The position numbers and the translations under genes were made by a program. The notes beneath the pieces were generated by a model that made no database searches, was not told where the DNA came from, and saw only the letters and a program-made list of their open reading frames with translations. From assembly GCA_035403785.1 (NCBI GenBank), contig DAONFW010000001.1, forward strand, positions 21,595-85,594: a stretch of DNA of 64,000 nt, read 5' to 3'. The stretch is from Minisyncoccota bacterium. GTDB taxonomy: Bacteria; Patescibacteriota; Minisyncoccia; Phycocordibacterales; UBA9973. Numbering within the stretch: the first letter of the stretch is position 1; each line of letters opens with the position of its first letter. Positions 1 through 43,702 of the stretch are shown one piece after another.

Positions 1-58
1 TGGGGGGAGCCGGCAAAAAATGGAAAGGAAAATTTTTGGTTTTGGTTCCGACGCTTCA
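1..58. repeat. Left copy (truncated by window edge) of long inverted repeat X1; reverse complement of 4792..4850
   Basis: Read directly from the sequence: 1..58 equals the reverse complement of about 4792..4850 (ggaaccaaaaccaaaaattttcctttccattttttgccggctcccccc). The partner copy continues to 4995, so this copy presumably extends beyond the left window edge. Confidence 0.8.
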
Positions 59-360
59 TTCCTCCAGAAAGGACTTGTATTTATATTTTAGCATTGTGGC
101 GATATTTTGTCCGTCCTTTCCTCCGTCATTCGCGTCGGTGCGAGGCGCTCCCGTATCCGCGTTTTGTGGTAGTTCTATCGTCCTCTCACACTTCACAATC
201 ACCTCACATAGGCCGTTCGCATTCGCTCACGATGCCTGCTCGGTGCTTGCTTCGTGTTCGCTCCGTGACTTCGTTTAAGCCTGTGGTAACTCTAAAAAGC
301 GGATTGTGCTGAGGCACAAGCAAGTTTATATGTGCTTGCCCCACCCGCCCACGTGCGCGC

Positions 361-390
361 ACAGAAAACCACTCGCTAACGCGAGTGGCT
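361..390 (-). terminator. GC hairpin (ccactcgc-taac-gcgagtgg) just downstream of the minus-strand ORF that ends at 400
   Basis: Perfect 8-bp stem with a 4-nt loop. An A-run precedes it on the plus strand, which is a T-run on the minus strand. Confidence 0.4.
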
Positions 391-399
391 CCCTTGTGA

Positions 400-1737
400 T
401 CATTTAATCTTTAAGAACAAATCGGTAATACCTTTGAGTAAATTTTCATCCGGCACTAAATCTTTAAGCTCTTTTGCAAATGACAAGAAACTTTCCGTTT
501 CTTTTTCATTACTAGCATTCAATAATTCTATTTTTTCTTTCTCTTTCTTTACCTTTTTCCAATCAATAGATTTCTCGTAAGGTTCAGTATAAAGTTTCTC
601 AATGGTTTTCCTTATGAAGGTCGTAGTCTCACCGTCTGACCCCTTTTCTTTAATTTTTTGAATTAGGAAATCTGCGTGGTTGCGCATGACTTCGGCTACA
701 GTTGCCTTGAATGAATATTTTTCCTCTAAATCCCGCTCAGTACCATATCGTCTAATTGCAAAAGTAATCAAAAAGAGTAGTGGCGAAGTAAGCGTTAAGC
801 GATAGAACAGAGATTCCCATTTAGGAATTTCACCTCCATTATGCAAAAGAATTTCCTTTACATCAAAAATAAAATAGAGAAGGATAGAAAGAGCAACAAT
901 ACCCAACGAGAAAATCGCTAACCAAATATAGCTATTCCTGCGTAGTAATTTAGCCCTATTTTGAAACGAATTAGCAAAACCCGTGTCTGTAATGAGGTCT
1001 GCTATTTTTTCAACCTCGGATCGTTTTTCTGTCGCGATATCAAGATTCTTTTGTATGTCATCTCGCAGTTGTTCTGATTTTTTCTTATTCCCTTCGATCT
1101 CAGAAAGGTGTTTCTGTGATTGATCACGAAAAGACTGAATTTCTGTAGCAACAGCAGTTGCTTTTTTCTGCAAATCTTGAACTTGCGCAAGAACTGCTCC
1201 CAAGCCGGTATTCTGGTCAGTAATTTTTGCATTAACCGCGACAAATTCATTGTAGGCATTTTGAATTTGTGTGATTTTTTCTTGAACTTGCCCCAGTAAT
1301 TCATTAATTTTCCCTAACTGTTGCGTCGCGGTTGTTTTGGCTGTTTCAATATCTGTTCGCAGGTTATTAGCTGTCAGAACAAGTGACTCTATTTCTCCCT
1401 CTCTACCCTCGATTTTTCCTTTTATGTTTTCAAATTTACGCAAACCTTCATCAATCTGAGTAATACTGGATTGTGCTTTTTCAAGATTGCTTTTTATTTC
1501 TGCAACAAAAGTTGCGGAATCATTCTTTGCGTTCTCAATAGTCCCAAGTCGCTCCCGGGCATCGTTTGAGATTTTTTCGATCTCATTCTGTTTTGGTACA
1601 AGGGTTGCTTGTGTAGCTTCAAATTTAATTTGAAGTGCTGAAATTTTCTCCAAAATATCTTTGGCTTTGTTGTATTGGCTCTTGATGTTCCTTAATTCTT
1701 CAGGACTCAAGTTAAAATTGTCGTTTTCGTCTGGCAT
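400..1737 (-). CDS. Hypothetical coiled-coil protein with two central TM helices (possible 2TM effector or abortive-infection-like protein); island 1 cargo
   Basis: 445-aa ORF. The N-terminal ~270 aa are E/K/Q-rich heptad-like sequence. Two hydrophobic helices follow (IWLAIFSLGIVALSILLYFIF; LTLTSPLLFLITFAI), then a ~120-aa charged tail. No recognisable enzyme motif. The gene is divergent from the LexA-like gene. Confidence 0.6.
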   Translation of the reverse strand: MPDENDNFNLSPEELRNIKSQYNKAKDILEKISALQIKFEATQATLVPKQNEIEKISNDARERLGTIENAKNDSATFVAEIKSNLEKAQSSITQIDEGLRKFENIKGKIEGREGEIESLVLTANNLRTDIETAKTTATQQLGKINELLGQVQEKITQIQNAYNEFVAVNAKITDQNTGLGAVLAQVQDLQKKATAVATEIQSFRDQSQKHLSEIEGNKKKSEQLRDDIQKNLDIATEKRSEVEKIADLITDTGFANSFQNRAKLLRRNSYIWLAIFSLGIVALSILLYFIFDVKEILLHNGGEIPKWESLFYRLTLTSPLLFLITFAIRRYGTERDLEEKYSFKATVAEVMRNHADFLIQKIKEKGSDGETTTFIRKTIEKLYTEPYEKSIDWKKVKKEKEKIELLNASNEKETESFLSFAKELKDLVPDENLLKGITDLFLKIK

Positions 1738-1749
1738 AAATTAATTGTG

Positions 1750-1792
1750 GATAACCGGGGACTTGTTTAGGTTATCTTTAGGTATTATAATC
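1750..1792 (+). promoter_or_regulatory. Palindromic operator candidate GATAACC-N13-GGTTATC overlapping a -10-like TATTATAAT in the divergent promoter region
   Basis: Seen in sequence: gataaccggggacttgtttaggttatc, then tattataat 6 bp before the ATG at 1798. It lies between the divergent 400..1737 and lexA-like genes. Confidence 0.45.
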
Positions 1793-1797
1793 TAACT

Positions 1798-2424
1798 ATG
1801 AAAAAGAAGTCAAGCGTTGGAATAGGTAAACCGACAAAGCGGGAAGCTGAAATCCTACAATTCGCACGAGAGTATCGTCAAGAAAATGGATTCTCCCCCT
1901 CACTGGTTGAGATTGCTAAACATTTTAAGCGTTCCGTGCCCACAATTCATCAACATGTCTATTCTTTGCGAAGCAAGAACCTTCTTTTGATAGATAAGGG
2001 CAAAAAGCGTTCAATCAATGCTTTACATAATCACAGGGTTTCGGAAGTAATGATACCTCTAATGGGAATTATTTCTGCCGGTGGTCCAATTGAGGCCATC
2101 CGCGATCCAAAACCAGTAGAAGTTCCGCGAAGTATGCTTTCCCCCGGACATGACTACTACGCACTAAAGGTTTCCGGGCTGAGCATGATTGAGGAAGGAA
2201 TATCAGATGGAGACGTTGTGATTGTAAGAGATCAACCAACAGTAGATGACGGAGAAAAAGCAGTCGCGTATATGCCAGATAGAAACGAAGTAACGCTCAA
2301 AAAAATATACAGAGAAAAAGGTCGGATAAAACTTGTTCCAGCAAATCAAACCATGAAGCCGTTTTATGAATCAAACGTGGTCATTCAAGGAAAGGTCGTA
2401 GGAGTATTAAGAAAAGAATTTTAA
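1798..2424 (+). CDS. lexA: LexA-like repressor (N-terminal winged HTH plus C-terminal S24 peptidase with an Ala-Gly self-cleavage site)
   Basis: HTH region LVEIAKHFKRSVPTIHQHV. Cleavage-site-like ISAGGP. Ser nucleophile in GLSM and Lys in TLKKI. Length of 208 aa is typical. Confidence 0.75.
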   Translation: MKKKSSVGIGKPTKREAEILQFAREYRQENGFSPSLVEIAKHFKRSVPTIHQHVYSLRSKNLLLIDKGKKRSINALHNHRVSEVMIPLMGIISAGGPIEAIRDPKPVEVPRSMLSPGHDYYALKVSGLSMIEEGISDGDVVIVRDQPTVDDGEKAVAYMPDRNEVTLKKIYREKGRIKLVPANQTMKPFYESNVVIQGKVVGVLRKEF

Positions 2425-2433
2425 AATAAACTT

Positions 2434-4008
2434 ATGTCATTAGTAACAATACACGAAGCATCAAAATGGGCGACGGACTATCTTGAAAAAGAGGTATCGC
2501 CAACAAATATTTCTTACCTTGTTCAATATGGTAAGGTTAAGAAACTTGGAGAAAATGGGTCAACCCTTGTTGATTTGAATGATTTGAAAAAGTATTACGA
2601 ATCATGGAAAGGTAAACGAGAGATTGATTGGAAAAAACAACTTGGTGATGATTTAAACTGGGCGTTGTCTTTTGATAATCTCAGGGAAAAAGATACGACG
2701 AAGCATGTTCATAGATTACATCCATACAAAGGAAAATATATTCCGCAACTTGTTGAATATTTTATTGATTCCCACATTGATGATTTTAAAAAAGAAGTTT
2801 ATTTTAAAACCGGTGATATAGTCCTCGATCCTTTTCTGGGTTCAGGAACAACAATTATTCAATCACTAGAAATGGGTATCCATTCCGTGGGTATTGATGT
2901 GTCTGAGTTTAATTGCATGATTGCGAGTTGCAAGGCAACAAACTATGATCACGACTATTTGCAGAAAGCAATTAAAAAAATGCTCTCCGCAATAGATACT
3001 TTTGAGCATGATAATAGAATCCAAGAATTTGAAACAGAGTTGTTGGCAGAATTGGCAAAGTTTAATAACAAACATTTTCCCGGCTCAGATTTCAAATATA
3101 AAATAAATCAGGGAAATTTTGATGAAAAAAAGTTTTCTTCAGAAAAAGAAAGGGAGTTTTTGCCTACATATCAGAAATTACTCAAAAAATATTCAATAAA
3201 ACTGAAACAAGACAAAACTGAGTCATTTTTAGATACTTGGTTTATGGATAATGTGAGAAAAGAAATTGATCATGTTTTTAACACTATAAAACAAGAGAAG
3301 GATACAAAAACAAAAAAGATTCTCGCTCTAATTTTGAGCCGAACAATTAGATCGTGTCGAGCTACAACACACAGCGATCTTGCTACCCTAAAAGAACCTC
3401 AACTAACAACATATTATTGCTATAAGCACAAAAAGATTTGCAAACCGTTGTTTTCTATAAAAACAATGCTTAATCGTTACGCTTACGATACTGTTTCAAG
3501 GATCAAGGAATTTGAAAGGTTGCGAAAACCAGTTCATTATTCTGCTATTGCTGGTGATTCAAGAGTTGTGGATATTTTTGAAAAAGTTGAAAAGCAAAAC
3601 CCAGAGTTCGCAAAAATTCTTAAAAAACAAAAAATTTCAGGTATTTTCTGCTCGCCTCCATATGTTGGACAGATTGATTATCACGAACAACACGCCTACG
3701 CCTATGACTTGTTAGGATTTAAGAGAAAAGATGATCTAGAAATTGGCCCACTTTACAAAGGACAAGGACAAGAGGCACGCAGATCATACGCACAAGGAAT
3801 AGCCGATGTGCTAAATAACTGTAAGAAATATCTAAAAGATGATTACGATATTTTCCTTGTGGCAAACGATAAATATAATCTTTATCCAGAAATTGCTGAA
3901 AAATCTGGAATGAAGATTGTTAATCAATTTAAAAGACCTGTTTTGAATCGAACAGAACGGGACAGGAATCCATATTCCGAAATAATTTTTCATTTTAAAT
4001 CAATATAA
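2434..4008 (+). CDS. Type II DNA methyltransferase, amino-MTase (N6-adenine or N4-cytosine), alpha-class motif order
   Basis: Motif I DPFLGSGTT at about aa 135. Motif IV SPPY (IFCSPPYVGQIDY) at about aa 410, with a long intervening target-recognition region. Confidence 0.75.
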   Translation: MSLVTIHEASKWATDYLEKEVSPTNISYLVQYGKVKKLGENGSTLVDLNDLKKYYESWKGKREIDWKKQLGDDLNWALSFDNLREKDTTKHVHRLHPYKGKYIPQLVEYFIDSHIDDFKKEVYFKTGDIVLDPFLGSGTTIIQSLEMGIHSVGIDVSEFNCMIASCKATNYDHDYLQKAIKKMLSAIDTFEHDNRIQEFETELLAELAKFNNKHFPGSDFKYKINQGNFDEKKFSSEKEREFLPTYQKLLKKYSIKLKQDKTESFLDTWFMDNVRKEIDHVFNTIKQEKDTKTKKILALILSRTIRSCRATTHSDLATLKEPQLTTYYCYKHKKICKPLFSIKTMLNRYAYDTVSRIKEFERLRKPVHYSAIAGDSRVVDIFEKVEKQNPEFAKILKKQKISGIFCSPPYVGQIDYHEQHAYAYDLLGFKRKDDLEIGPLYKGQGQEARRSYAQGIADVLNNCKKYLKDDYDIFLVANDKYNLYPEIAEKSGMKIVNQFKRPVLNRTERDRNPYSEIIFHFKSI

Positions 4009-4012
4009 TTTT

Positions 4013-4795
4013 ATGGCACTATCAAAAGAACAAGTTAAAAATGTCGAGGATGTACTAAAAGCAAGTCTCAGAAACAAATTCCAAAATTACAAACCGGAAC
4101 CGGCTTCGATGCCATTCCATACTCGTCTTTTGGGTAAGGATAGATTGGCACTTTATTCATTTATCCATTCTCTCAATACTAATTTTGGAACAAGTATTTT
4201 TGAACCGGTCGGCTTAGCTTTGGCGCAAAAGAATTTCAAAATGGCTACATGCCAAGCTACTGCCGGAGATCGTATAAGCACCGGCGCACAAGCAGAAATA
4301 CAAAAAATTATTGATGGACTAACGACGGCAACATCATCACCAAACAAAAAAGAGGAAATTGAACGAATAAGAAAAGTTTGTCAGTCTGGTGAGATGATAA
4401 AAGCAAAACCTACCAAAGTAGATTTAATGTTTGAATCAAAAGACGGCGGTTATTATTTATTTGATATAAAAACAGCAAAACCTAATGCTGGAGGATTTAA
4501 GGAATTTAAACGAACACTACTTGAATGGGTCGCTGTGACTTTGGCGAACAATCCAAAAGCCGATATAAACACATTTATCGCAATTCCATATAATCCTTAC
4601 GAACCAGAGCCTTACACACGATGGACAATGCGTGGAATGCTTGATTTGGATAATGAGCTTAAAGTAGCTGATGAATTTTGGGATTTTCTTGGTGGTAAAG
4701 GCACATACAAAGATTTACTAGATTGTTTTGAACGAGTTGGAATTGAACTTCGTGGCGAAATAGATGACTACTTTAAGCGCTTCAATAAAAAATAA
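4013..4795 (+). CDS. Putative cognate type II restriction endonuclease
   Basis: The start lies 4 bp after the MTase stop on the same strand. There is a possible D..D-x-K catalytic signature (KDGGYYLFDIK). No other homology is recognisable by eye. Confidence 0.45.
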   Translation: MALSKEQVKNVEDVLKASLRNKFQNYKPEPASMPFHTRLLGKDRLALYSFIHSLNTNFGTSIFEPVGLALAQKNFKMATCQATAGDRISTGAQAEIQKIIDGLTTATSSPNKKEEIERIRKVCQSGEMIKAKPTKVDLMFESKDGGYYLFDIKTAKPNAGGFKEFKRTLLEWVAVTLANNPKADINTFIAIPYNPYEPEPYTRWTMRGMLDLDNELKVADEFWDFLGGKGTYKDLLDCFERVGIELRGEIDDYFKRFNKK

Positions 4796-4995
4796 GCGTC
4801 GGAACCAAAACCAAAAATTTTCCTTTCCATTTTTTGCCGGCTCCCCCCACACCCCCCGCCGAAAGAGGAATTGTAAGGAAAATTTTGGTTTTGGGATCGC
4901 GACCGAAGGGAGCGTGCGAGGCGCAAGTATCATTCGTCAAAATCCTGCGGATTTTGTCCGAAATACATTCGAACTTCGTCCAATACACACCGCCA
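4792..4995. repeat. Inverted repeat X1, right copy, ending in the CCGCCA core at 4990..4995
   Basis: 4792..4850 matches the reverse complement of 1..58. The distal 50 bp (ggattttgtccgaaatacattcgaacttcgtccaatacacaccgcca) is conserved with the end of X2 at 36857..36906. Confidence 0.65.
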
Positions 4996-5109
4996 AAATT
5001 GGAAATCGGAATCGGAAGCCGAAATGGGGTCGGCGCGAAGCGCCGACACAAACGCATTCCCGCCAAAAATTCCCGAATCCAAAAGGTTTTTCCACGCTCC
5101 GCGTGGCTC
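4990..5109. repeat. Inverted repeat Y1, copy A (120 bp, GC-rich, with internal hairpins)
   Basis: Appears to be a perfect reverse-complement match to 6512..6631 when read by eye in chunks. It contains the hairpins gtcggcgc-gaa-gcgccgac and ccacgc-tcc-gcgtgg. Confidence 0.85.
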
Positions 5110-5131
5110 TCTCGTTTGCCAATACAATTTT

Positions 5132-6730
5132 ATGAATAATCAAACCAAAAAGTTTTTCATATATACTCGCAAGTCTACGGATGACAAAGACAGACAAGTC
5201 CGCAGTATTGCAGACCAACTTTCTGAATTGAAAGAATTAGCAAGGAAAGAAGATTTAGATGTTGTTGATGTCTTTGTCGAAAAGCAGACCGCCAAAATAC
5301 CAGGTCGCCCAGTGTTTGGTGAGATGTTGGAGCGAATGGAGAAAGGCGAAGCCACTGGTATTTTGGCGTGGCATCCCGATAGACTTGCTCGCAACTCGAT
5401 AGACGGAGGAAAAGTCATCTACCTCGTTGACACCGGTGTCATTTCAGAAATGAAATTCCCAACTTTTTGGTTTGATCCGACACCGCAAGGCAAGTTTATG
5501 CTTTCAATCGCTTTTTCGCAGTCCAAGTATTATGTGGACAATTTGAGCGAAAATATTAAGCGTGGACATAGAAACAAAGTGAAAGAAGGAATATGGCCTC
5601 AAATGTCGCCGCTAGGATATATAAACGAGGGCGGGAAAATTGTCGTTGATGAAAATATCGCACCTTTAATCAAGAAAACATTTGAGGCATATTCGTCTGG
5701 GTCTTTCACTTTGCGACAACTTCGCGACAAATTTAATGAACTTGGATTGAAGCGAAAAAGCGGAAAGGAACTTGCGGTGTCGAATTATCAAAAACTTTTG
5801 AAAAACCCAATTTACACAGGTTTGATGTTGTATAACGGCGAGATACACGAAGGTAAGCACGAACCGATTATTACAAAGAAACTTTTTGATTCCGTTCAAG
5901 AAGTGATGATGAGAAAATCTAAACCGAAGTCGCGAGGATTGAAACCATTTTTGTACAGAGGATTTTTCCGTTGCGGAGAATGTAGTTGCTTCATTACCAC
6001 CGAAACACAGAAGGGTCATAATTATTTGCGATGTACCAAACGGAAAAATCCTTGTTCACAAAAATATACTCGTGAGGAAACCATCACTTCTGAAATTCAA
6101 AAGGAAATCAAAAAAGTTTCTTTGCCAGACGATTGGGCTTCTTGGATGTTAGTGGAAAATAGAAAAGATATATTGAGTGAAGCCCAATTGTCTACGCTTT
6201 TTGCAGACAACACAAAAGCCGATATTTCTCTTTTGGATTCTAAAATTGAGAAGCTGATGAACGCATATTTAGAGAACGCACTTTCGCTAGACGAGTATCG
6301 AGATATGAAAAACAAACTTGTGAACGAAAAACAGCTTCTCAAAGAGAAATTATCGGCTTTTGAGAAAAAAGCGAATAATCGGTTCGAACTTACCGAAAAG
6401 TTTTTGAAATACAATGTGGAATTGGCAAACGAGTGTACAAATGAAGAAAAACTTCATTTGTACAAAAAAGTCGGTTCGAACTTTCAAATTAAGGATCGAA
6501 CCGTACTTTTTGAGCCACGCGGAGCGTGGAAAAACCTTTTGGATTCGGGAATTTTTGGCGGGAATGCGTTTGTGTCGGCGCTTCGCGCCGACCCCATTTC
6601 GGCTTCCGATTCCGATTTCCAATTTTGGCGGAGGCGGAGGGATTCGAACCCTCGATGCCCTTTCAGACATACAGACTTTCCAGGTCTGCGCACTAGACCG
6701 CTATGCGACGCCTCCAAAATTTCTTATTAA
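5132..6730 (+). CDS. Large serine recombinase (resolvase/invertase catalytic domain, recombinase domain and zinc ribbon)
   Basis: The ATG at 5132 aligns with the paralog start MDNINLQTKKIFLYARKSTDE. Catalytic Ser is in YTRKSTDD. The Cys cluster FRCGECSCFITT...LRCTKRKNPC is present. Homology to the paralog ends near aa 465 (GSNFQIKDRTVLFEP). The last ~70 codons are encoded by repeat Y1 copy B and antisense tRNA-Ser, so the functional end is probably earlier than the ORF stop. Confidence 0.85.
   Translation: MNNQTKKFFIYTRKSTDDKDRQVRSIADQLSELKELARKEDLDVVDVFVEKQTAKIPGRPVFGEMLERMEKGEATGILAWHPDRLARNSIDGGKVIYLVDTGVISEMKFPTFWFDPTPQGKFMLSIAFSQSKYYVDNLSENIKRGHRNKVKEGIWPQMSPLGYINEGGKIVVDENIAPLIKKTFEAYSSGSFTLRQLRDKFNELGLKRKSGKELAVSNYQKLLKNPIYTGLMLYNGEIHEGKHEPIITKKLFDSVQEVMMRKSKPKSRGLKPFLYRGFFRCGECSCFITTETQKGHNYLRCTKRKNPCSQKYTREETITSEIQKEIKKVSLPDDWASWMLVENRKDILSEAQLSTLFADNTKADISLLDSKIEKLMNAYLENALSLDEYRDMKNKLVNEKQLLKEKLSAFEKKANNRFELTEKFLKYNVELANECTNEEKLHLYKKVGSNFQIKDRTVLFEPRGAWKNLLDSGIFGGNAFVSALRADPISASDSDFQFWRRRRDSNPRCPFRHTDFPGLRTRPLCDASKISY
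6512..6631. repeat. Inverted repeat Y1, copy B, overlapping the recombinase 3' end and abutting the tRNA-Ser 3' end
   Basis: Reverse complement of 4990..5109. Its last 6 nt (tggcgg) are the terminal CCGCCA of the tRNA. Confidence 0.85.
6626..6715 (-). tRNA. tRNA-Ser (anticodon GGA), class II with a long variable arm
   Basis: Reverse complement reads GGAGGCG-TC-GCAT...; anticodon stem-loop CAGAC-CTGGAAA-GTCTG; T arm GAGGGTTCGAATCCCTC; acceptor CGCCTCC-G-CCA. Length 90 nt. Confidence 0.85.
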
Positions 6731-33753: not shown

Positions 33754-34176
33754 TTAATTTCGCACACATTTCATAAGGATTCTTGTTAAATCTTCTTTGT
33801 CTTTTTTTGAAAGTCCTTCAAGCGCTTTTTTGAAAAACAACATTTTTCTTTTATGAATAGAAGCAAATAATTTTTGCGCTTCTTTTCCCAATATCACATG
33901 CGTAGTCCTACGATCTCCATTCAACTGCACTCTTGATACTAATTTCTTTTTTTCCAAAGTATCTACAAGCGCGCTAGCCGACGGCGGAGTGATATTTAGT
34001 ACCGAAGCTACTTTTTTCATAGTAATAGAGCCACTCTTTAGAATATTAGTCAGCACTTCGAATTGCGAAAGCGGAATCTTTAATCTCTTTGCTTCTTCAA
34101 ACAAAGAATCCGTTATAGCCTGTCTAAACTCTAAAAGAAGCCCATCTAGGCTTGTTTTTTTAGTTTTTGTTTTCAT
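33754..34176 (-). CDS. MarR-family transcriptional regulator
   Basis: Winged HTH LSQFEVLTNILKSGSITMKKVASVLNITPPSASALVDTLEKKKLVSR. First gene of the efflux operon. Confidence 0.75.
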   Translation of the reverse strand: MKTKTKKTSLDGLLLEFRQAITDSLFEEAKRLKIPLSQFEVLTNILKSGSITMKKVASVLNITPPSASALVDTLEKKKLVSRVQLNGDRRTTHVILGKEAQKLFASIHKRKMLFFKKALEGLSKKDKEDLTRILMKCVRN

Positions 34177-34267
34177 ATTTAAAATTTAAAATATCTAATA
34201 GTTAGATAAACTAAATATTATCATAAAGTTATTTTTTGTGCAAATAGAATAATTATTGAATTTAAAA

Positions 34268-34462
34268 ATCTGGCGGTGTTTTTTGGACGAAGTTCGAACG
34301 TTTTTTGACGAAAATCCTGAAAACTAATTTGGACTCGGCGGGGCAAACTATTTTTCTGGGGGAATGGAATTGCCCCGCCTCGGCTTTCTTCCCGCCCGCA
34401 GGAGGGGTCTGGGGAGGAATGCGGGCGGGTTTTTGAACCTTTCCTTTTTCGCTTCCGAATTT
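34268..34462. repeat. Inverted repeat X2, left copy (about 195 bp, GC-rich), starting with a tggcgg core
   Basis: Perfect reverse complement of 36712..36906 read by eye. The sequence at 34463..34480 differs from its partner, but each version is itself an 18-bp palindrome. Confidence 0.85.
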
Positions 34463-34493
34463 CGTGCCAGTTGAAAACTGGCGCGCCACCTAT

Positions 34494-35477
34494 TTAACTA
34501 TTTTTTAAATCACTCATTATTTTTTTTGCCAAGTGATGAGCAAAATTTACTGCAACAGCATTTCCAATCATTTTATAACCGTCAGCAATATCACGATATT
34601 TGAAAATAAAATCATCGGGAAATGTTTGTATTCTTGCACACTCACGAACAGACAAACGGCGGTATAATTGTTCTTTTCCGGGAACAAAAATTCTTTTATT
34701 TTGTTCAATAAATTTCATTTTTGGTGCTTGTGGGTGAATTGGTGCGTGGCGACCACCAGCTTGAATTGTGAAAGAAGGCTCGTCCCAAGAACGGACACGA
34801 TTTCGCGACATATAAATCGTTGAGAAACCGCCATTCATATATTCATGGTTTGGAATTTTCAACTCGTCGCCGTTTGTCTTGTTTTTATCTTTAGCTGGTT
34901 TTGCTAAACGCAAATCAAAAATAGCGTCTTTCAAAACAGGTTTATATTTTTGTGGTTCTGGAAATTCAAATTTCTTTTTTAATTTTTTATGATAACCAAC
35001 AATAATAACGCGAAGCCTATCCTCTGGAACATCATAATCATTTGCGTTTAGAAGTTTGCAAGAAATTACATATCCGGCATTTTCAAATTCCTTGATTATA
35101 TTTGAAAATGCCTCTTTGTGTTTTGGGTGTAAAATCCCCGATACATTTTCTGCAAGAAAAAATTTTGGCTGTTTTTCTTTCAATAAACGAATGTAGTCAT
35201 AAAATAATTGACCTCGCTTGTCGTTTATTCCACGCCCAGCACCAGCCTCACTCCAACTTTGGCAAGGAGGTCCGCCAATAATTCCGTCAACATCGGGGAT
35301 TTCAGACGCTGGAACATCAACAATACTTCTCTTGTCTAATTTTGTTTTTGGAAAATTATACTCAAATGTTTCCCAAATTGTCGGGTCGTATTCATTCGCC
35401 CAAACGACATGAAAACCAGCTCTTTCAAAGCCTAAATCTAACCCACCCGCACCTGTAAATAAAGAAGCTAATTTCAT
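34494..35477 (-). CDS. dcm: DNA (cytosine-5)-methyltransferase
   Basis: Motif I LFTGAGGLDLGF. Motif IV GGPPCQSWS. Motif VI ENV. Motif X GNAVAVN. Confidence 0.9.
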   Translation of the reverse strand: MKLASLFTGAGGLDLGFERAGFHVVWANEYDPTIWETFEYNFPKTKLDKRSIVDVPASEIPDVDGIIGGPPCQSWSEAGAGRGINDKRGQLFYDYIRLLKEKQPKFFLAENVSGILHPKHKEAFSNIIKEFENAGYVISCKLLNANDYDVPEDRLRVIIVGYHKKLKKKFEFPEPQKYKPVLKDAIFDLRLAKPAKDKNKTNGDELKIPNHEYMNGGFSTIYMSRNRVRSWDEPSFTIQAGGRHAPIHPQAPKMKFIEQNKRIFVPGKEQLYRRLSVRECARIQTFPDDFIFKYRDIADGYKMIGNAVAVNFAHHLAKKIMSDLKNS

Positions 35478-35478
35478 A

Positions 35479-36327
35479 TTATTTTCTAAAACTCAATAAT
35501 TTCGCCTCAAGCAATTTTGCTGGATTATTTGGCGATTTTATTTTTATATCTTTAATTAAAAAGTTATCACTAACTAAACTTTCAAGATGTTTTCTGTCTT
35601 TTTCTGGAAAAGACAAATATTTTTCTTTCAGCAAAATTGCATTAACAAAAAATTCAGAATTTTGCTCTGCCGGAACAACATAATCAAAAACTTTTATAGG
35701 ATTTTCAATTCCCCACATTCCACGAATACGCAAATATGTTATTCCAAGAGGATCAACGCGATTTACTCTGCCGAGTTCGTTTGTTTCCGAAAATTCAACA
35801 TCTTGTAATTCATTAACACCTTTTGAAATTTTATCTCTTATTCTTTCGTAAACTTCTTTATTTGCGGAATAACAATTACCATAAACAAGCCACAAGGCTT
35901 TTAGCTTGTCATCTTTTGAAACTCCAACAACATAAACTAAATCTTTTTCCCGCCAATCCTCACAATTTTTGCAAGCAGTGGTTATCATCGGACTATCAGA
36001 AAATAGTTTGTCTTTAGGATACGAACTATTAAGTGCAATTCCCGAACGCAAACTTTCAATTTTCTTAACTTCTATCGCATCACCTTGCTTGATAATAATG
36101 TCTGGCGGATTATTTTGATTTCCAATATAAGAAAAATATTTGCTGTAAATTTCATTTTTCTTTTCAAGATTATTTTCATTTAGGGAATTGCAAAATAAGT
36201 CTTTGATATAAAATTCTAAAGCGTCGCCCATACTGTTTGCTCGGTTGGCAGCACGATAATGAGAAACCAAATTTGTAATTGGATTTTTGACTAAATTTGA
36301 TATTGCGATAAGTAAATTTGTTTCCAT
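35479..36327 (-). CDS. Type II restriction endonuclease (PD-(D/E)xK fold), cognate of the m5C MTase
   Basis: PPDIIIKQGDAIEVKK fits PD-x10-ExK. It is 1 bp upstream of dcm on the same strand. Confidence 0.55.
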   Translation of the reverse strand: METNLLIAISNLVKNPITNLVSHYRAANRANSMGDALEFYIKDLFCNSLNENNLEKKNEIYSKYFSYIGNQNNPPDIIIKQGDAIEVKKIESLRSGIALNSSYPKDKLFSDSPMITTACKNCEDWREKDLVYVVGVSKDDKLKALWLVYGNCYSANKEVYERIRDKISKGVNELQDVEFSETNELGRVNRVDPLGITYLRIRGMWGIENPIKVFDYVVPAEQNSEFFVNAILLKEKYLSFPEKDRKHLESLVSDNFLIKDIKIKSPNNPAKLLEAKLLSFRK

Positions 36328-36331
36328 AGTT

Positions 36332-36526
36332 TTATTTTATTAAATCCTCAATCGGCACATTAAGTGCCTTCGCGATTTTTTTAATTGTATCAATAGTTGG
36401 ATTTTGTTGTTTGCCTGCCTCGATATTGATTATCGTATTATTGGAAACATCAGCAAGACGGGCTAGTTTTTCTTGCGACAAACCCATTTTTTCTCTTATT
36501 CGTTTGATTTTGCTTGACTCTACCAT
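36332..36526 (-). CDS. Controller (C) protein, XRE-family HTH
   Basis: 64-aa HTH (LSQEKLARLADVSNNTIINIEAGK). It lies immediately upstream of the REase gene. Confidence 0.7.
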   Translation of the reverse strand: MVESSKIKRIREKMGLSQEKLARLADVSNNTIINIEAGKQQNPTIDTIKKIAKALNVPIEDLIK

Positions 36527-36556
36527 ATTAAAATAGTAATATTAAATTGTGGTATA

Positions 36557-36600
36557 ATAATTATATGCTTCAACAAAATAACCACAATATAATATTACCA
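36557..36600 (-). promoter_or_regulatory. Candidate C-box operator palindrome (TTGTGGT ... ACCACAA) upstream of the C-protein gene
   Basis: Seen in sequence: attgtggtataataattatatgcttcaacaaaataaccacaat. Confidence 0.4.
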
Positions 36601-36711
36601 AAATATTTCGACTTCGTAAAGAAAAAAGGGAGTTCCTTAGCGTTGCCCGCGAATGGGTTGGGTGGGTCAAGGGCAACATCTCTTTTGGTGGCGCATTTTG
36701 CTTTGCAAAAT

Positions 36712-36906
36712 ACGAAATTCGGAAGCGAAAAAGGAAAGGTTCAAAAACCCGCCCGCATTCCTCCCCAGACCCCTCCTGCGGGCGGGAAGAAAGCCGAGGC
36801 GGGGCAATTCCATTCCCCCAGAAAAATAGTTTGCCCCGCCGAGTCCAAATTAGTTTTCAGGATTTTCGTCAAAAAACGTTCGAACTTCGTCCAAAAAACA
36901 CCGCCA
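36712..36906. repeat. Inverted repeat X2, right copy, ending in the CCGCCA core (36901..36906)
   Basis: Reverse complement of 34268..34462. Confidence 0.85.
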
Positions 36907-37034
36907 AGTTTTACATTCAGCGAAATTGAAAGATGTTGCCTCGGCGCAAAGCGCCTCGGCATGGTATTTTTCCGCAATTTTGAAGGCATTTTTGAAATCC
37001 AAAACCAAAGTGCGGTCGGCAATGCGGAAGTTCG
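36901..37034. repeat. Inverted repeat Y2, copy A (about 133 bp)
   Basis: Perfect reverse complement of 38518..38650 read by eye. It contains the ggcgc-aaa-gcgcc hairpin. Confidence 0.85.
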
Positions 37035-37148
37035 CCGTGCAAAGCACGGGCAAAATGAAATTTTGCAAACCAATCTTTTTTCTTTCGCTTTCGGCGAAAG
37101 GTTGAGCGTATTTTTCTTTGATTGCCCAAAAACTAATTTCAAAACAAT

Positions 37149-38702
37149 ATGGACAACATAAATTTACAAACCAAAAAGATTTTTCTCTATGCCCGTAAAT
37201 CCACGGACGAACCCGAAAGGCAGGTTTTGAGTATTGAGGCGCAAATGTTTGAATTGCGGGAATTTGCGAAAAAAGAAGGACTAAATATCGTCCGTGAATT
37301 TGTGGAAAGCAAAACCGCCAAAGAGCCGGGGCGTGAGATTTTTAACGAAATGATCACAAGCATAGAGAAAAATGAAGCAGAGGGAATTTTAGCGTGGCAC
37401 CCCGACCGCCTCGCTCGAAATAGCATAGACGGCGGACGAATAATCTATTTCGTAGATACTGGCAAAATTACCACGCTAAAATTTCCAACTTTTTGGTTTG
37501 ATCCGACACCGCAGGGAAAATTTATGTTGAGTATCGCTTTTGGGCAATCAAAATATTATGTGGATAATCTTTCGGAAAATATAAAGAGGGGTATTCGCCA
37601 GAAATTGCGAAATGGAATATGGCCCGCTTGGGCGCCACTTGGGTATGTGAACGACAAGAACGCCCGCTGTATTGCCGTGGACAAGGAAAAGGCAAAGTAT
37701 ATCAAGCGGGCTTTTGAAATGTACGCGACTGGCGAATACCCCCTCGCTCAAATCCGAAAGATTATCAATTCCTTGGGCTTGGTTGGCAAGAAAGGCAAAA
37801 TGCTTTCCGTCTCAAATTATCAGTATATGCTGAAAAATAAAATCTATTACGGAATGATTGAATATAACGGCGAATTGTATGACGGAAAGCACGAACCGAT
37901 TATCACAAAGAGACTTTTTGATTTATGCCAAGAAGTGATGATGAATAAGTCAAAACCGAAAACACCAAAACTCAAGCCATACATTTTTAGAGGATTTTTC
38001 CGTTGTGGGGAGTGCGGTTGTTTCATTACCACCGAAACGCAAAAAGGTCATAACTATTTGCGATGTACGAAACGGAAAAATCCTTGTTCGCAAAGGTATG
38101 TAAGAGAGGACGCCATCACTTCTCAAATTAAAGAGGAAATCAAAAAAGTTTCTTTGTCTTCCGCTTGGGCAAACGCTTCAATCAATTATTTTGAAAATGA
38201 AAAAATGAAACTTGCCCAAGCGGAAAGCTCTTTCGCCCAAGAAGCGAGAAATGAGCTTGTAGAGATAGAAACAAAACTTGATCGTTTGCTTGATTTACAA
38301 CTGGACGGCAGTTTGTCGCAAGCAGAATATACCGCTAAAAAGCACAAGCTCATTCTCGCCAAAAAGGATTTGGAAGAAAAAATCACTGCTTTTGGGCGAA
38401 AGAGCAATAATCGGTTCGAACTTACCATTGCCTTTCTAAAAGACGCCAACCAAGCCGAAAAATACGCTCAACAAGAAAATCCCGAAAGGATTCGGGATTT
38501 TCTCAAAAAGATTGGTTCGAACTTCCGCATTGCCGACCGCACTTTGGTTTTGGATTTCAAAAATGCCTTCAAAATTGCGGAAAAATACCATGCCGAGGCG
38601 CTTTGCGCCGAGGCAACATCTTTCAATTTCGCTGAATGTAAAACTTGGCGGAGACGGCGGGATTCGAACCCGCGATGGGTTTTGAAGCCCATGCCTCTTT
38701 AG
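37149..38702 (+). CDS. Large serine recombinase (paralog of 5132..6730)
   Basis: YARKSTDEPERQ catalytic motif. Zinc ribbon FRCGECGCFITT...LRCTKRKNPCSQ. The C-terminal tail is encoded by repeat Y2 copy B and then antisense tRNA-Ser, giving WRRRRDSNPR as in the paralog. Confidence 0.85.
   Translation: MDNINLQTKKIFLYARKSTDEPERQVLSIEAQMFELREFAKKEGLNIVREFVESKTAKEPGREIFNEMITSIEKNEAEGILAWHPDRLARNSIDGGRIIYFVDTGKITTLKFPTFWFDPTPQGKFMLSIAFGQSKYYVDNLSENIKRGIRQKLRNGIWPAWAPLGYVNDKNARCIAVDKEKAKYIKRAFEMYATGEYPLAQIRKIINSLGLVGKKGKMLSVSNYQYMLKNKIYYGMIEYNGELYDGKHEPIITKRLFDLCQEVMMNKSKPKTPKLKPYIFRGFFRCGECGCFITTETQKGHNYLRCTKRKNPCSQRYVREDAITSQIKEEIKKVSLSSAWANASINYFENEKMKLAQAESSFAQEARNELVEIETKLDRLLDLQLDGSLSQAEYTAKKHKLILAKKDLEEKITAFGRKSNNRFELTIAFLKDANQAEKYAQQENPERIRDFLKKIGSNFRIADRTLVLDFKNAFKIAEKYHAEALCAEATSFNFAECKTWRRRRDSNPRWVLKPMPL
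38518..38650. repeat. Inverted repeat Y2, copy B, abutting the tRNA-Ser 3' end
   Basis: Reverse complement of 36901..37034. Confidence 0.85.
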
Positions 38703-38737
38703 CAAAGAGGTACGTTAGACCACTCTGACACGTCTCC
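38646..38737 (-). tRNA. tRNA-Ser (anticodon GCU), class II
   Basis: Reverse complement reads GGAGACG...; anticodon loop CCTCT-TTGCTAA-AGAGG; long variable arm; GGTTCGAATCC T-loop; CCA is encoded. Confidence 0.85.
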
Positions 38738-38809
38738 TTGAACTTTACTCTAACATATTTTCATTATTTTTCCATTTATGCTATATTGACTTTATATTTA
38801 AACAAAAAC

Positions 38810-38898
38810 GGAGGCGTGGATGAGTGGTTTAAATCAACGGTTTACTAAACCGTCGTACCCTAACCGGTACCGTGAGTTCGAATCTCACCGCCTCCGCA
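38810..38898 (+). tRNA. Class II (Ser-type) tRNA with apparent anticodon ACU (unusual A34); possible tRNA-Ser variant or pseudo-tRNA
   Basis: Acceptor GGAGGCG/CGCCTCC. D-stem GAT/ATC with GG in the loop. Anticodon arm ACGGT-TTACTAA-ACCGT. Variable arm GTACC-CTAACC-GGTAC. T arm GTGAG-TTCGAAT-CTCAC. The 3' CCA is not fully encoded (GCAG). Confidence 0.6.
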
Positions 38899-39001
38899 GT
38901 AAGAACTTGGTATCGACAGACTCGCTGGCTTATGATTGTGAAACGACCCGAGTGGCTGATTACCTAAACTGGGATATATAAGCTAAAATTGATTTATATC
39001 T

Positions 39002-39964
39002 ATGACTGAAGATTTATTGTTCAAAATAAAAGAAAAATCTAGTGAAATAGACTGGGCAGATACAGATATCAAAAAACCTTTAAGTATCAATTTTCCTGTA
39101 CCTGTTTTACACGCGCGCTATCCAAAAATCCAGCAATATTTGTTATCTGTTGCGCAACTTAGTAATTATCATTTTCTTGAAAACGATTTGATTATTTGCG
39201 ACATAGAAATTAAAAAACATCTCACAAAAAATATTGCGGATTTGCCAAATATAATTTTTCTCGAGGCAGCAGAAAATAAGACAAAAATTCTATCAGAAGC
39301 AAATATTCTAGTTAAACAAGTCACAGGAAAAAACTACAAAAGAATACTCGCTATTGGCGGTGGAATAATTGCTAATATTGCTTCATATATCGCAGAAAAG
39401 TTAGAGGTTGATATTGTTCATGTTCCCACTACAGTTCTTTCTATGTCTGATGCGAGTATTGGCGGAAAAGTCCGAGTCAATGACATTCAGGGAAATACTT
39501 TTATTAAACATGCGTATAAAACTTTTTATGAACCATCTGAGATAGTTCTTGATCCGCTTTTTCTTACATATTTAAGCGATGAACAGATACGAATTGGACT
39601 CGCTGAAATTATTAAGCACGCCCTCTATCAGTCTCCGTTACTTGCTGAGTATCTTTTATCAGATGCATTTCAGCCTTTTACCGACAGACTTAGCTTGTTG
39701 AGAGCAATTCTATGGGTCGCTGATCTAAAACGAATTTGTCTTGAGATCGATCCAGAGGAAACTAAAAATGGTTCATATAAAATTCTTCGAGCAGCGCATG
39801 ATATTTCTGACAAACTTGAGGAAAGAAGTGGATTCACGTTGCCTCATGGAAAAGCCGTAGAAAAAGCAATGGTTGAAGATTTGTATTCTAACAAAGGAAA
39901 ATCTGAGCAACTCGCTCGAATTTATCAAAAGCTTGGTATTGGATACACAACAGTATTTTCTTAG
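39002..39964 (+). CDS. 3-dehydroquinate synthase family protein (AroB-like sugar phosphate cyclase fold)
   Basis: Gly-rich NAD loop LAIGGGIIANIASY. VPTTVLSMSDASIGGKVRVN resembles the DHQS motif. A conserved HG occurs later (LPHGKAVE). Confidence 0.6.
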   Translation: MTEDLLFKIKEKSSEIDWADTDIKKPLSINFPVPVLHARYPKIQQYLLSVAQLSNYHFLENDLIICDIEIKKHLTKNIADLPNIIFLEAAENKTKILSEANILVKQVTGKNYKRILAIGGGIIANIASYIAEKLEVDIVHVPTTVLSMSDASIGGKVRVNDIQGNTFIKHAYKTFYEPSEIVLDPLFLTYLSDEQIRIGLAEIIKHALYQSPLLAEYLLSDAFQPFTDRLSLLRAILWVADLKRICLEIDPEETKNGSYKILRAAHDISDKLEERSGFTLPHGKAVEKAMVEDLYSNKGKSEQLARIYQKLGIGYTTVFS

Positions 39965-43626: not shown

Positions 43627-43702
43627 GTCCGCCCTCTTGGACTCGAACCAAGGACCCCAGAGGTATAAGCTCTGTGCTCTAGCCAGCTGAGCTAAGGGCG
43701 GA
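43627..43702 (-). tRNA. tRNA-Ile (anticodon UAU, or possibly modified)
   Basis: Reverse complement: TCCGCCC acceptor; D arm GCTC-AGCTGGCTA-GAGC; anticodon arm CAGAG-CTTATAC-CTCTG; T arm CTTGG-TTCGAGT-CCAAG. Length 76 nt. Confidence 0.7.

Follow-up and report, generated by a model that had tools for sequence, protein, structure and literature searches.

Large serine recombinases (LSRs) of small non-phage elements, such as SCCmec Ccr, XisF and the TnpX/TndX-type enzymes, carry out both excision and insertion, and tRNA 3' ends are typically targeted by tyrosine integrases and are not known as a usual target of LSRs. In SSV1-type integrases and in cluster N/G mycobacteriophages attP lies within a coding sequence and integration alters the C-terminus of the protein, and in the yeast 2-micron plasmid two inverted repeats, each with a recombination site, separate the recombinase segment from a second unique segment. 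Restriction-modification (RM) units flanked by long inverted repeats and, separately, RM units accompanied by an integrase at a tRNA 3' end are reported by Furuta, Abe and Kobayashi (2010, PMC2853133), where long direct repeats mark the tRNA cases and one integrase of stated type is a tyrosine recombinase. Here we describe Island 2, one of two islands at tRNA-Ser genes in a 64,000-nt stretch of a Minisyncoccota bacterium genome (assembly GCA_035403785.1, contig DAONFW010000001.1, positions 21,595 to 85,594; hereafter the window). Island 2 carries an RM cassette and an LSR gene within nested inverted repeats, and we consider it probably an integrated two-module LSR island of a large family, in which an internal inverted attP would allow the modules to invert but not to separate and would toggle the C-terminal tail of the recombinase.

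Architecture of Island 2

Island 2 is organised by two pairs of inverted repeats, X2 enclosing the cargo and Y2 enclosing the recombinase gene (Table 1). Inverted repeats were located with a repeat finder and the exact limits of X were then set by reading the sequence; tRNA genes were called with ARAGORN and protein domains with Pfam. The repeat finder placed the X2 arms at 34265-34465 and 36712-36912 (201 nt, 99%), of which the surplus 6 nt are a chance AAAA and two mismatches, and read directly the arms form a perfect repeat of 195 nt. The first-pass annotation, made from the letters of the window, had recognised X2 as a 195-nt repeat but began its left arm at 34268, and TGGCGG begins at 34271. 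The same annotation had proposed Y2 copies A and B as an inverted repeat, and these proved to be 134 nt long and 100% identical, the comparison of the window with itself returning repeat identity for both X2 (99-100%) and Y2 (100%). Because these are perfect inverted repeats of 134-195 nt, a chance origin in 64 kb is impossible, and an assembly artefact was rejected as their source since such repeats recur across many independent assemblies and occur twice in the window.

X2 and Y2 abut at a 6-bp core, TGGCGG/CCGCCA, and the same core forms the 3' end of tRNA-Ser(GCU). Alignment of the three core occurrences gives the composition chromosomal flank, TGGCGG, X at site 1 (34271); Y', TGGCGG, X at site 2 (36901-36906, reverse complement); and Y', TGGCGG, tRNA at site 3 (38646). 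These compositions are consistent with the attL (B-P'), an inverted complete attP (P-P') and the attR (P-B') of a serine integrase, respectively, and what is unusual is the retention of an intact attP within the integrated island, inverted relative to both attL and attR. On the chromosomal side of site 1 the flank is conserved to ...AAAAATC in the related strains L084 and L087 and is element-specific beyond (labels of this form denote related loci or contigs compared with the window islands).

The spacing of a motif shared by the element and its target supports the assignment of half-sites. The T-loop TTCGAAC of tRNA-Ser(GCU) lies 5 bp nearer the core than the TTCGAAC of X; across the family TTCGAAC begins at position 17 after GCGG in 43 of 43 distinct X ends (17-23) and at position 12 in tRNAs (12-18). 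In LSRs the zinc-ribbon motif is 5 bp closer to the centre in attB than in attP half-sites (Rutherford et al., PMC3783163), and the same 5-bp offset is found here when P' is compared with B'; the B arms are not conserved, so the P/B pair stands outside this comparison.

The recombinase and its alternative C-termini

The Island 2 recombinase matches PF00239 over residues 12-157 (E = 6.6e-20), with the catalytic serine motif present and with R16, K17 and S18 invariant in alignments of 14 and 23 homologues, and it also matches the Recombinase (PF07508) and zinc-ribbon (PF13408) domains. An AlphaFold2 model places two long helices (338-385 and 391-441) between the zinc-ribbon strands, which is the inserted coiled-coil. 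On these domains and motifs the protein is a large serine recombinase. An exact look-up of its sequence returned no record, and among solved structures (PDB) only isolated catalytic domains match it.

The open reading frame (ORF) of the recombinase crosses the core at codons 500-501 (W R) and stops 51 nt inside the tRNA gene, which it reads antisense. All homologues aligned likewise stay open through Y' to W-R (TGG CGG) and beyond. As integrated in the window, the Island 2 protein continues from ...KTWR with RRRDSNPRWVLKPMPL and a stop, an ending of the WRRRRDSNPR type that is tRNA antisense and is common to both window recombinases. Joined to X instead, it would read ...KTWR followed by CFLDEVRTFFDENPEN and a stop, and for Island 1 the sequence is ...FWR followed by CVLDEVRMYFGQNPQDFDE and a stop. 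Both kinds of ending occur in the databases: of the 120 best protein clusters, 67 have the tRNA-antisense ending (WRRxRDSNPR) and 21 the ending WRCFLDEVRTFFxxNPxxDF, which is the X terminus in frame, and single 90% protein clusters contain both tails after identical Y' sequence.

A coding function for the X terminus is also indicated by its pattern of variation. Over 43 arms the entropy at codon positions 1, 2 and 3 is 0.58, 0.47 and 1.03; a stop interrupts the recombinase frame in 1 of the 43 arms, as against 21 and 30 in the other two frames; and synonymous differences number 2072 in the recombinase frame versus 799 and 536. By these measures the X terminus shows codon-type conservation and behaves like coding sequence. 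The tail is predicted to be helical over residues 498-513 (AlphaFold2 with 23 X-tailed homologues, pLDDT about 78), at moderate confidence in a model with an overall pLDDT of 71 and pTM of 0.39. A GC-rich hairpin followed by TTTTT lies downstream of the X-coded stop, in an orientation that suits termination of an X-joined recombinase transcript; a scan for terminator and promoter consensus sequences was uninformative, the loop of this hairpin being too long for the scanner. The minus strand of site 2 (36850-37068) accordingly holds a promoterless spare 3' end for the recombinase. What had been noted in the first-pass annotation as a 45-bp end motif is thus, in our interpretation of the sequence, the P' half-site, which also codes for the alternative C-terminal tail. 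The inner end of Y (GGTTCGAAC, encoding GSN) was considered as a second crossover site and rejected, a boundary being present there only in the W2 (Island 2) clade and not in W1 or others.

A shared plan in a large recombinase family

Island 1, at the start of the window, repeats the plan of Island 2 at tRNA-Ser(GGA), as the first-pass annotation had proposed, and the two islands have in common a 48-nt end motif of 83% identity. Their recombinases are 56% identical, with similarity extending to about aa 475 and none thereafter, close to the roughly 50-60% identity to about aa 465 that had been predicted. Dozens of unrelated genomes show the nested plan again, with X and Y bodies of many kinds and with varying cargo, and in the related strain L087 a different element occupies the same chromosomal site, to the base, as Island 2. 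The earlier proposal of a family with element-specific repeat bodies, rather than a recent duplication, is therefore upheld.

The Island 2 recombinase has at least 7983 homologues with E < 1e-20, and 589 recombinase loci were found in species-representative genomes. Architecture statistics refer to the best 80 of these 589 loci, with denominators that vary by feature. The 80 loci are labelled mostly as Patescibacteria and Elusimicrobia, with some Gammaproteobacteria, Bdellovibrionales and Bacteroidota. A tRNA gene overlaps the recombinase 3' end in antisense in 63 of 72 loci; the targets are mostly tRNA-Ser (four anticodons), with tRNA-Asp, tRNA-Glu and tRNA-Gln also represented. A Y inverted repeat surrounds the recombinase in 46 of 56 loci (median 121 nt, 98.6% identity), an inverted P' motif lies just upstream of the recombinase in 38 of 56, and an X inverted repeat (median 200 nt, 99.1% identity) enclosing 1.3-7.4 kb of cargo is present in 25 of 38. 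X-right and Y-A usually share the core, an overlap of 4-9 nt, in loci for which both repeats were mapped; the exception is L079, where a gap of 6 nt separates them. At 26 of 30 sites (28 related loci and both window islands) the P' motif (TGTTTTTTGGACGAAGTTCGAACnTTTTTTGAnnAAAATCC, reverse complement) lies outside Y-A and a tRNA 3' end outside Y-B. Across loci the common core shrinks to GCGG for Ser targets or GCTG for Gln targets. Only 2 close relatives were found among viral contigs, which makes a phage origin unlikely.

Recombinases 92-94% identical are found at tRNA-Ser (four anticodons) and tRNA-Asp. One of these, at L121:2065-3939, is 94% identical to that of Island 2 and carries the same NgoPII cargo at tRNA-Asp(GUC), so that target choice seems to depend on generic features of tRNA 3' ends. 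In L044:81-3475 and L073:1389-3074 recombinases 41% identical have their own X/Y-type nested repeats, in tandem with the cargo module or on its other side, and the architecture therefore reaches deeper branches of the family. Other junctions depart from the usual plan. In L077:9500-9530 and L078:9490-9520 neither a tRNA nor the P' motif comes after the Y'-core, and these junctions may represent integration at a non-tRNA site or a rearrangement; in L003:7661-9596 two inverted tRNA-Ser(GGA) genes of 100% identity and with differing 5' flanks enclose a recombinase module, and the adjoining Y arms differ near the core.

A survey of 27 cargo modules (83 ORFs) revealed mostly restriction-modification and related genes. 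The families include N6_N4 and N6 methyltransferases (MTases), type III MTases, ResIII/DEAD helicases, Eco57I, HpaII, NgoPII and HTH regulators, and there are also LexA-like proteins, RadC, one HSP70 and one sulfatase.

Orientation isomers and module exchange

Evidence for inversion comes from contigs that share flanks, cargo or recombinase and differ in arrangement. Much of it consists of contigs assembled from short reads that run across perfect repeats or stop in them, where an assembler may misroute, and this counts against the model proposed below; contigs merely ending within a repeat arm were excluded and weight was placed mainly on cases with diverged arms or on long contigs. In L084, from the same host strain and with a 100% identical flank, the RM cassette is inverted relative to marR compared with the window, L081 and L093. 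The strain is present in the source metagenomes JGI 3300009692, 3300009694 and 3300025867 and ENA ERZ27257449. Cargo accompanies the same recombinase protein in either orientation in L098 and L102 versus L099-L101 and L103, and in L106 versus L107, and L018 and L001 have the same X ends and cargo-end hairpins in swapped order.

The recombinase module is also found in the opposite orientation. In L104 (at tRNA-Gln), L097 and L076 the tRNA is followed closely downstream, on its own strand, by a recombinase that points away from it; the recombinase reads into X in L104 and L097, and the L076 contig ends inside Y'. The orientation in L104 is not an assembly ambiguity, because its Y arms are only 86.5% identical. 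L120 and L122 have flank and cargo in common (99.9% identical) and carry opposite recombinase modules that are only 92% identical. As judged from these assembled contigs, cargo and recombinase modules thus both exist in both orientations in nature. Modules also reassort at the cores, the same X occurring with different Y and hybrid arms being present in L003, L010 and L097. Recombinase-less RM islands beside tRNA-Ser in L118 and L124 would be explained by microhomology deletions from the state in which the recombinase points away. At L098:11499-11693, L118:4734-4870 and L124:3439-3660 the tRNA is joined via a 33-45-nt P arm to cargo or to a partial X, and these cargo-only or truncated forms are consistent with microhomology deletions of the recombinase.

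Proposed mechanism and alternatives

We hypothesise that a distinct LSR clade inserts such islands at the last bases of tRNA genes through recombination of attP with attB at that position. Each island would comprise a cargo module bounded by inverted X arms, each ending in a P' half-site and core, and a recombinase module bounded by inverted Y arms, each ending in a P half-site and core. Since sites 1 and 3 are in direct orientation, recombination of attL with attR would free the complete island as a circular molecule of about 4.4 kb, predicted to contain two inverted copies of a roughly 329-bp attP-bearing repeat, an RM segment of 2246 bp and a recombinase segment of 1483 bp. Site 2 is inverted with respect to both neighbours, so that recombination involving it could only flip a module and the cargo would never be unlinked from the recombinase. 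The LSR itself may recombine the internal attP with attL or attR and thereby flip a module, and RecA-type gene conversion between the long arms would keep the arms identical.

The state of the junction would in turn decide which protein is made. With the recombinase 3' end joined to the tRNA, as in the window, the protein would end in arbitrary tRNA-antisense residues and the gene would converge on the tRNA gene, a putatively quiet sink; with the recombinase joined to X, as it would be in the circle or once its module has inverted, the protein would gain the conserved helical tail and the gene an intrinsic terminator, giving the presumed active enzyme. C-terminal appendages can set directionality in synthetic fusions of an integrase with a recombination directionality factor (RDF), as has been reported (PMC5737554). 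A more speculative extension, which we regard as possible but rather unlikely, is that alternation between the X helix and the tRNA-antisense tail forms a self-rewritten switch of directionality or activity that replaces an RDF, and that the inverted sites moreover permit cassette exchange of defence cargo or recombinase modules, in either orientation, from linear DNA in naturally competent bacteria of the candidate phyla radiation (CPR).

Several observations weigh against the two-module LSR island as we have outlined it, and some of them feed its strongest rival. A search of metagenome contigs for the pattern joining the left flank to the tRNA yielded no empty attB for the Island 2 site; the circular form is not demonstrable by sequence, because the circle junction would be identical to site 2; the origin of the duplicated arms is left unexplained; and conservation of P' could derive partly from DNA recognition instead of coding. 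Canonical LSRs do not recombine attP with attL or attR (PMC3783163), and inversions driven by the LSR would therefore be a non-canonical activity. The arms, at 120-430 nt and 97-100% identity, are far longer than LSR half-sites (about 25 bp) and are typical of concerted evolution by homologous recombination, so RecA could do all of the flipping, and the strong dominance of the tRNA-joined state in genomes (63 of 72) implies that flipping is either rare or biased. The rival that draws on these points accepts an LSR element but regards the internal attP and long arms as passive in site-specific recombination, with all flipping mediated by RecA and the tail of consequence only in the circle. It is the strongest of the alternatives, albeit distinctly the less probable account, since X-right and Y-A abut exactly at the core apart from L079, a complete P/core/P' site persists even in loci whose arms have diverged (L067, L078 and L104), and modules reassort precisely at the cores; homologous recombination alone would neither demand nor preserve a full attP at the module junction.

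The reassortment of X and Y types can also be read as the product of two adjacent transposon-like units, a recombinase with Y terminal inverted repeats and a non-autonomous cargo with X terminal inverted repeats, that inserted separately at CCGCCA. This would accommodate the other combinations seen, namely a recombinase on each side of the cargo in L073, sets arranged in tandem in L044 and, in L003, a recombinase flanked by two copies of the tRNA. However, a serine recombinase acting on two inverted sites inverts and cannot excise, the junctions are exactly those of attL, attP and attR with the 5-bp attP/attB offset, and the cargo-only islands L118 and L124 carry a P arm at one end and resemble deletion derivatives, all of which renders such an origin improbable.

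Given that the cargo is mostly RM and that both orientations occur within populations of the same strain, the recombinase might instead serve as a phase-variable switch that inverts the RM cassette and turns restriction and methylation on or off. We consider this very improbable, as the flip takes in the whole cassette with the regulator and the upstream region that belong to it, the identity of the X arms leaves 195 nt of context the same on both sides, non-RM cargo (HSP70, sulfatase, RadC) is carried too, and the elements sit at tRNA ends with attL/attR logic; moreover, Pfam matched no hsdS-type partial genes in Island 2, and no change of promoter linkage or of specificity-gene composition through inversion was found. 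A captured 2-micron-like circular replicon, in which the inverted repeats serve copy-number amplification through recombinase-driven fork inversion, would explain why the predicted circle has two site-bearing inverted repeats separating the recombinase segment from a second unique segment, but is hardly credible when no Rep family occurs in Island 2 or among the 25 commonest families of the cargo survey (83 proteins, 27 modules), the recombinase 3' end abuts a chromosomal tRNA at most loci (63 of 72) and relatives are almost absent from viral contigs.

Gene content and neighbouring features

By Pfam, Island 2 contains an HTH protein, a restriction endonuclease (REase), a methyltransferase and the LSR only (Table 1). 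The cassette of methyltransferase, REase and HTH protein on the minus strand, the marR gene on the left side and the tRNA-Ser(GCU) on the right had all been read from the sequence in the first-pass annotation, and the Pfam and ARAGORN assignments agree with it. The 64-aa HTH protein, which occupies the position of a C protein, is on record as an identical copy in 220 assembly blocks with varied cargo alongside; its neighbours there are NgoPII RM genes with or without ThsB_TIR, PycTM or AAA_15, as well as ABC transporter genes. It may be part of the element backbone rather than a classical C protein.

Table 1 Features of Island 2, its flanks and Island 1, in positions of the window
Feature	Position	Strand	Description
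Island 2	34271..38651		full extent
MarR gene	33754..34176	-	left flank; Pfam
Core copy 1, TGGCGG	34271..34276	+	attL-like junction; right of core same as at site 2, left chromosomal
X2 left arm	34271..34465	+	opens with core; next 41 nt are the conserved P' half-site TGTTTTTTGGACGAAGTTCGAACGTTTTTTGACGAAAATCC
Alternative recombinase 3' end	34271..34327	+	W R C F L D E V R T F F D E N P E N, then stop; would join the recombinase gene in the excised circle
Terminator-like hairpin	34391..34434	+	CCCGCCCGCA...TGCGGGCGGG then TTTTT; oriented for transcripts entering X from the core
C5 cytosine DNA methyltransferase	34494..35477	-	PF00145, E = 7e-98
NgoPII-family restriction endonuclease	35479..36327	-	RE_NgoPII, PF09521, E = 7e-119
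HTH protein, 64 aa	36332..36526	-	HTH_3 (Pfam); C-protein position
X2 right arm	36712..36906	-	reverse complement of left arm; terminates in P' half-site and core CCGCCA (36901-36906)
Site 2, putative complete inverted attP	36850..37068	-	Y', core, X; also promoterless recombinase 3' end with X-coded tail
Y2 arm A	36901..37034	+	inverted copy of recombinase 3' end; P half-site at outer end
Leader	37035..37148	+	from Y-A to recombinase ATG; two small hairpins
Large serine recombinase, 517 aa	37149..38702	+	Resolvase, Recombinase and Zn_ribbon_recom (Pfam)
Y2 arm B	38518..38651	+	codes recombinase aa 457-501; ends in core TGGCGG (38646-38651); attR-like
tRNA-Ser(GCU)	38646..38737	-	ARAGORN; putative attB B' half
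X1 repeat (Island 1)	1-56 / 4794-4849		inverted; left arm cut by window start
X1 left arm and cargo	1..4793		445-aa coiled-coil protein (-); LexA-like S24 protein, N6/N4 MTase and TdeIII REase (+)
Island 1 counterpart block	4794..6715	+	X1 right arm to tRNA
X1 right arm	4794 to about 4995		core CCGCCA at 4990
Y1 repeat	4990-5109 / 6512-6631		inverted; 120 nt, 100%
Island 1 recombinase	5132-6730	+
tRNA-Ser(GGA)	6626-6715	-	Island 1 target

Several smaller features accompany the modules. The unique cargo segment is bordered by two different hairpins (34466-34487 and 36690-36711), each followed by GCGCC; these hairpins are common to W2, L001, L006 and L007 and are swapped in L018, and no common motif was found at the inner ends of X. 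The leader of the recombinase contains the hairpins CCGTGC-AAA-GCACGG and TTTCGC-TTTCG-GCGAAA, which show compensatory substitutions across the window leader (37035-37148) and its equivalents in L001-L080, and it may serve as a 5' UTR with a regulatory role or as a site of protein binding. An Rfam scan of 34000-39100 returned two tRNAs only and matched no known RNA family in X or Y. A 204-aa ORF without a Pfam match (36547-37161, plus strand) spans X-right, Y-A and the leader into the recombinase start, and equivalents of 198-234 aa have been annotated by gene callers in L119, L121, L123 and L125; it is probably an artefact of GC-rich repeats within an AT-rich genome.

Beyond the island a tRNA-Ser with anticodon ACU (38810-38897, plus strand) is divergent from tRNA-Ser(GCU), and the same pair is present in L043, L044 and L076; the A at position 34 is uncommon in a bacterial tRNA-Ser. 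ARAGORN also called a tRNA-Ile with anticodon UAU at 43627-43701 (minus strand). A series of roughly 200-nt periodic repeats of 61-85% identity at 23131-24414 probably encodes a minus-strand repeat-domain protein.

Implications

The islands would constitute a very abundant and apparently undescribed class of mobile defence islands in Patescibacteria and neighbouring phyla, whose mobile elements are poorly known. The mechanism we offer would keep cargo linked to the recombinase and still permit modular exchange, and an attP inside the recombinase gene together with a spare inverted attP makes the islands a natural system in which the recoding of a recombinase by recombination can be tested directly. 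An LSR clade directed at the universal tRNA 3' end would also be of practical interest for genome engineering.

Comparison with known systems

The island recombinase is the same three-domain enzyme as those of phiC31, Bxb1, A118/LI integrase and SPbeta, although it is only remotely similar to characterised LSRs in sequence. As in phiC31-type elements, the junctions fit a reaction of attP with attB that gives attL and attR around a short core, and the distal motif of the P-type half-site lies 5 bp further out than that of the B-type. The island differs from these elements in its tRNA 3'-end target, in the second, inverted and long-armed attP inside the integrated form and in a recombinase ORF that spans attP; no RDF candidate was found in the island, candidates not having been examined. 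Our literature search found no description of the nested X/Y LSR island architecture, and in Furuta et al. (PMC2853133) the likeness lies in RM cargo within long inverted repeats and in RM accompanied by a tRNA-sited integrase, and neither the nested X/Y arrangement nor an LSR is described there.

Among named families, the best NCBIfam matches of the island recombinase are CcrB, XisF and CcrA, but its scores fall far below the equivalog cut-offs (CcrB, 93.8 bits against 900; XisF, 85.2 against 375), and the SCCmec, XisF and TnpX elements, unlike the island, are not known to have nested inverted repeats, an internal attP or a tRNA target. SSV1-type integrases and those of cluster N/G mycobacteriophages likewise have the C-terminus of an element protein recoded at attP; in contrast to the island enzyme they are tyrosine integrases, and they are not known to keep an inverted spare attP that would allow reversal while integrated.

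Parallels to the inverted arrangement are found in elements of other kinds. In Hin, Gin and Cin, the R64 shufflon and phase-variable hsdS loci, as would be the case here, inversion swaps the 3' end of a gene for a copy held in reverse; in the island the recoded gene is that of the recombinase itself, one of the alternative ends is host tRNA antisense, and the enzyme is neither a small invertase with a C-terminal HTH, inverted sites of about 26 bp and a Fis enhancer nor a tyrosine recombinase but a 517-aa LSR with recombinase and zinc-ribbon domains and attP/attB-type half-sites. The predicted circle has the layout and orientation isomers of the yeast 2-micron plasmid (Flp/FRT); the island differs in having a serine rather than a tyrosine recombinase, no replication functions found and integration at tRNA genes. 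Judged by its enzyme, junctions and half-sites, Island 2 is of the serine-integrase type, and does not belong with the Ccr/XisF equivalogs, the Hin/Gin switches, phase-variable RM loci or 2-micron-like replicons.

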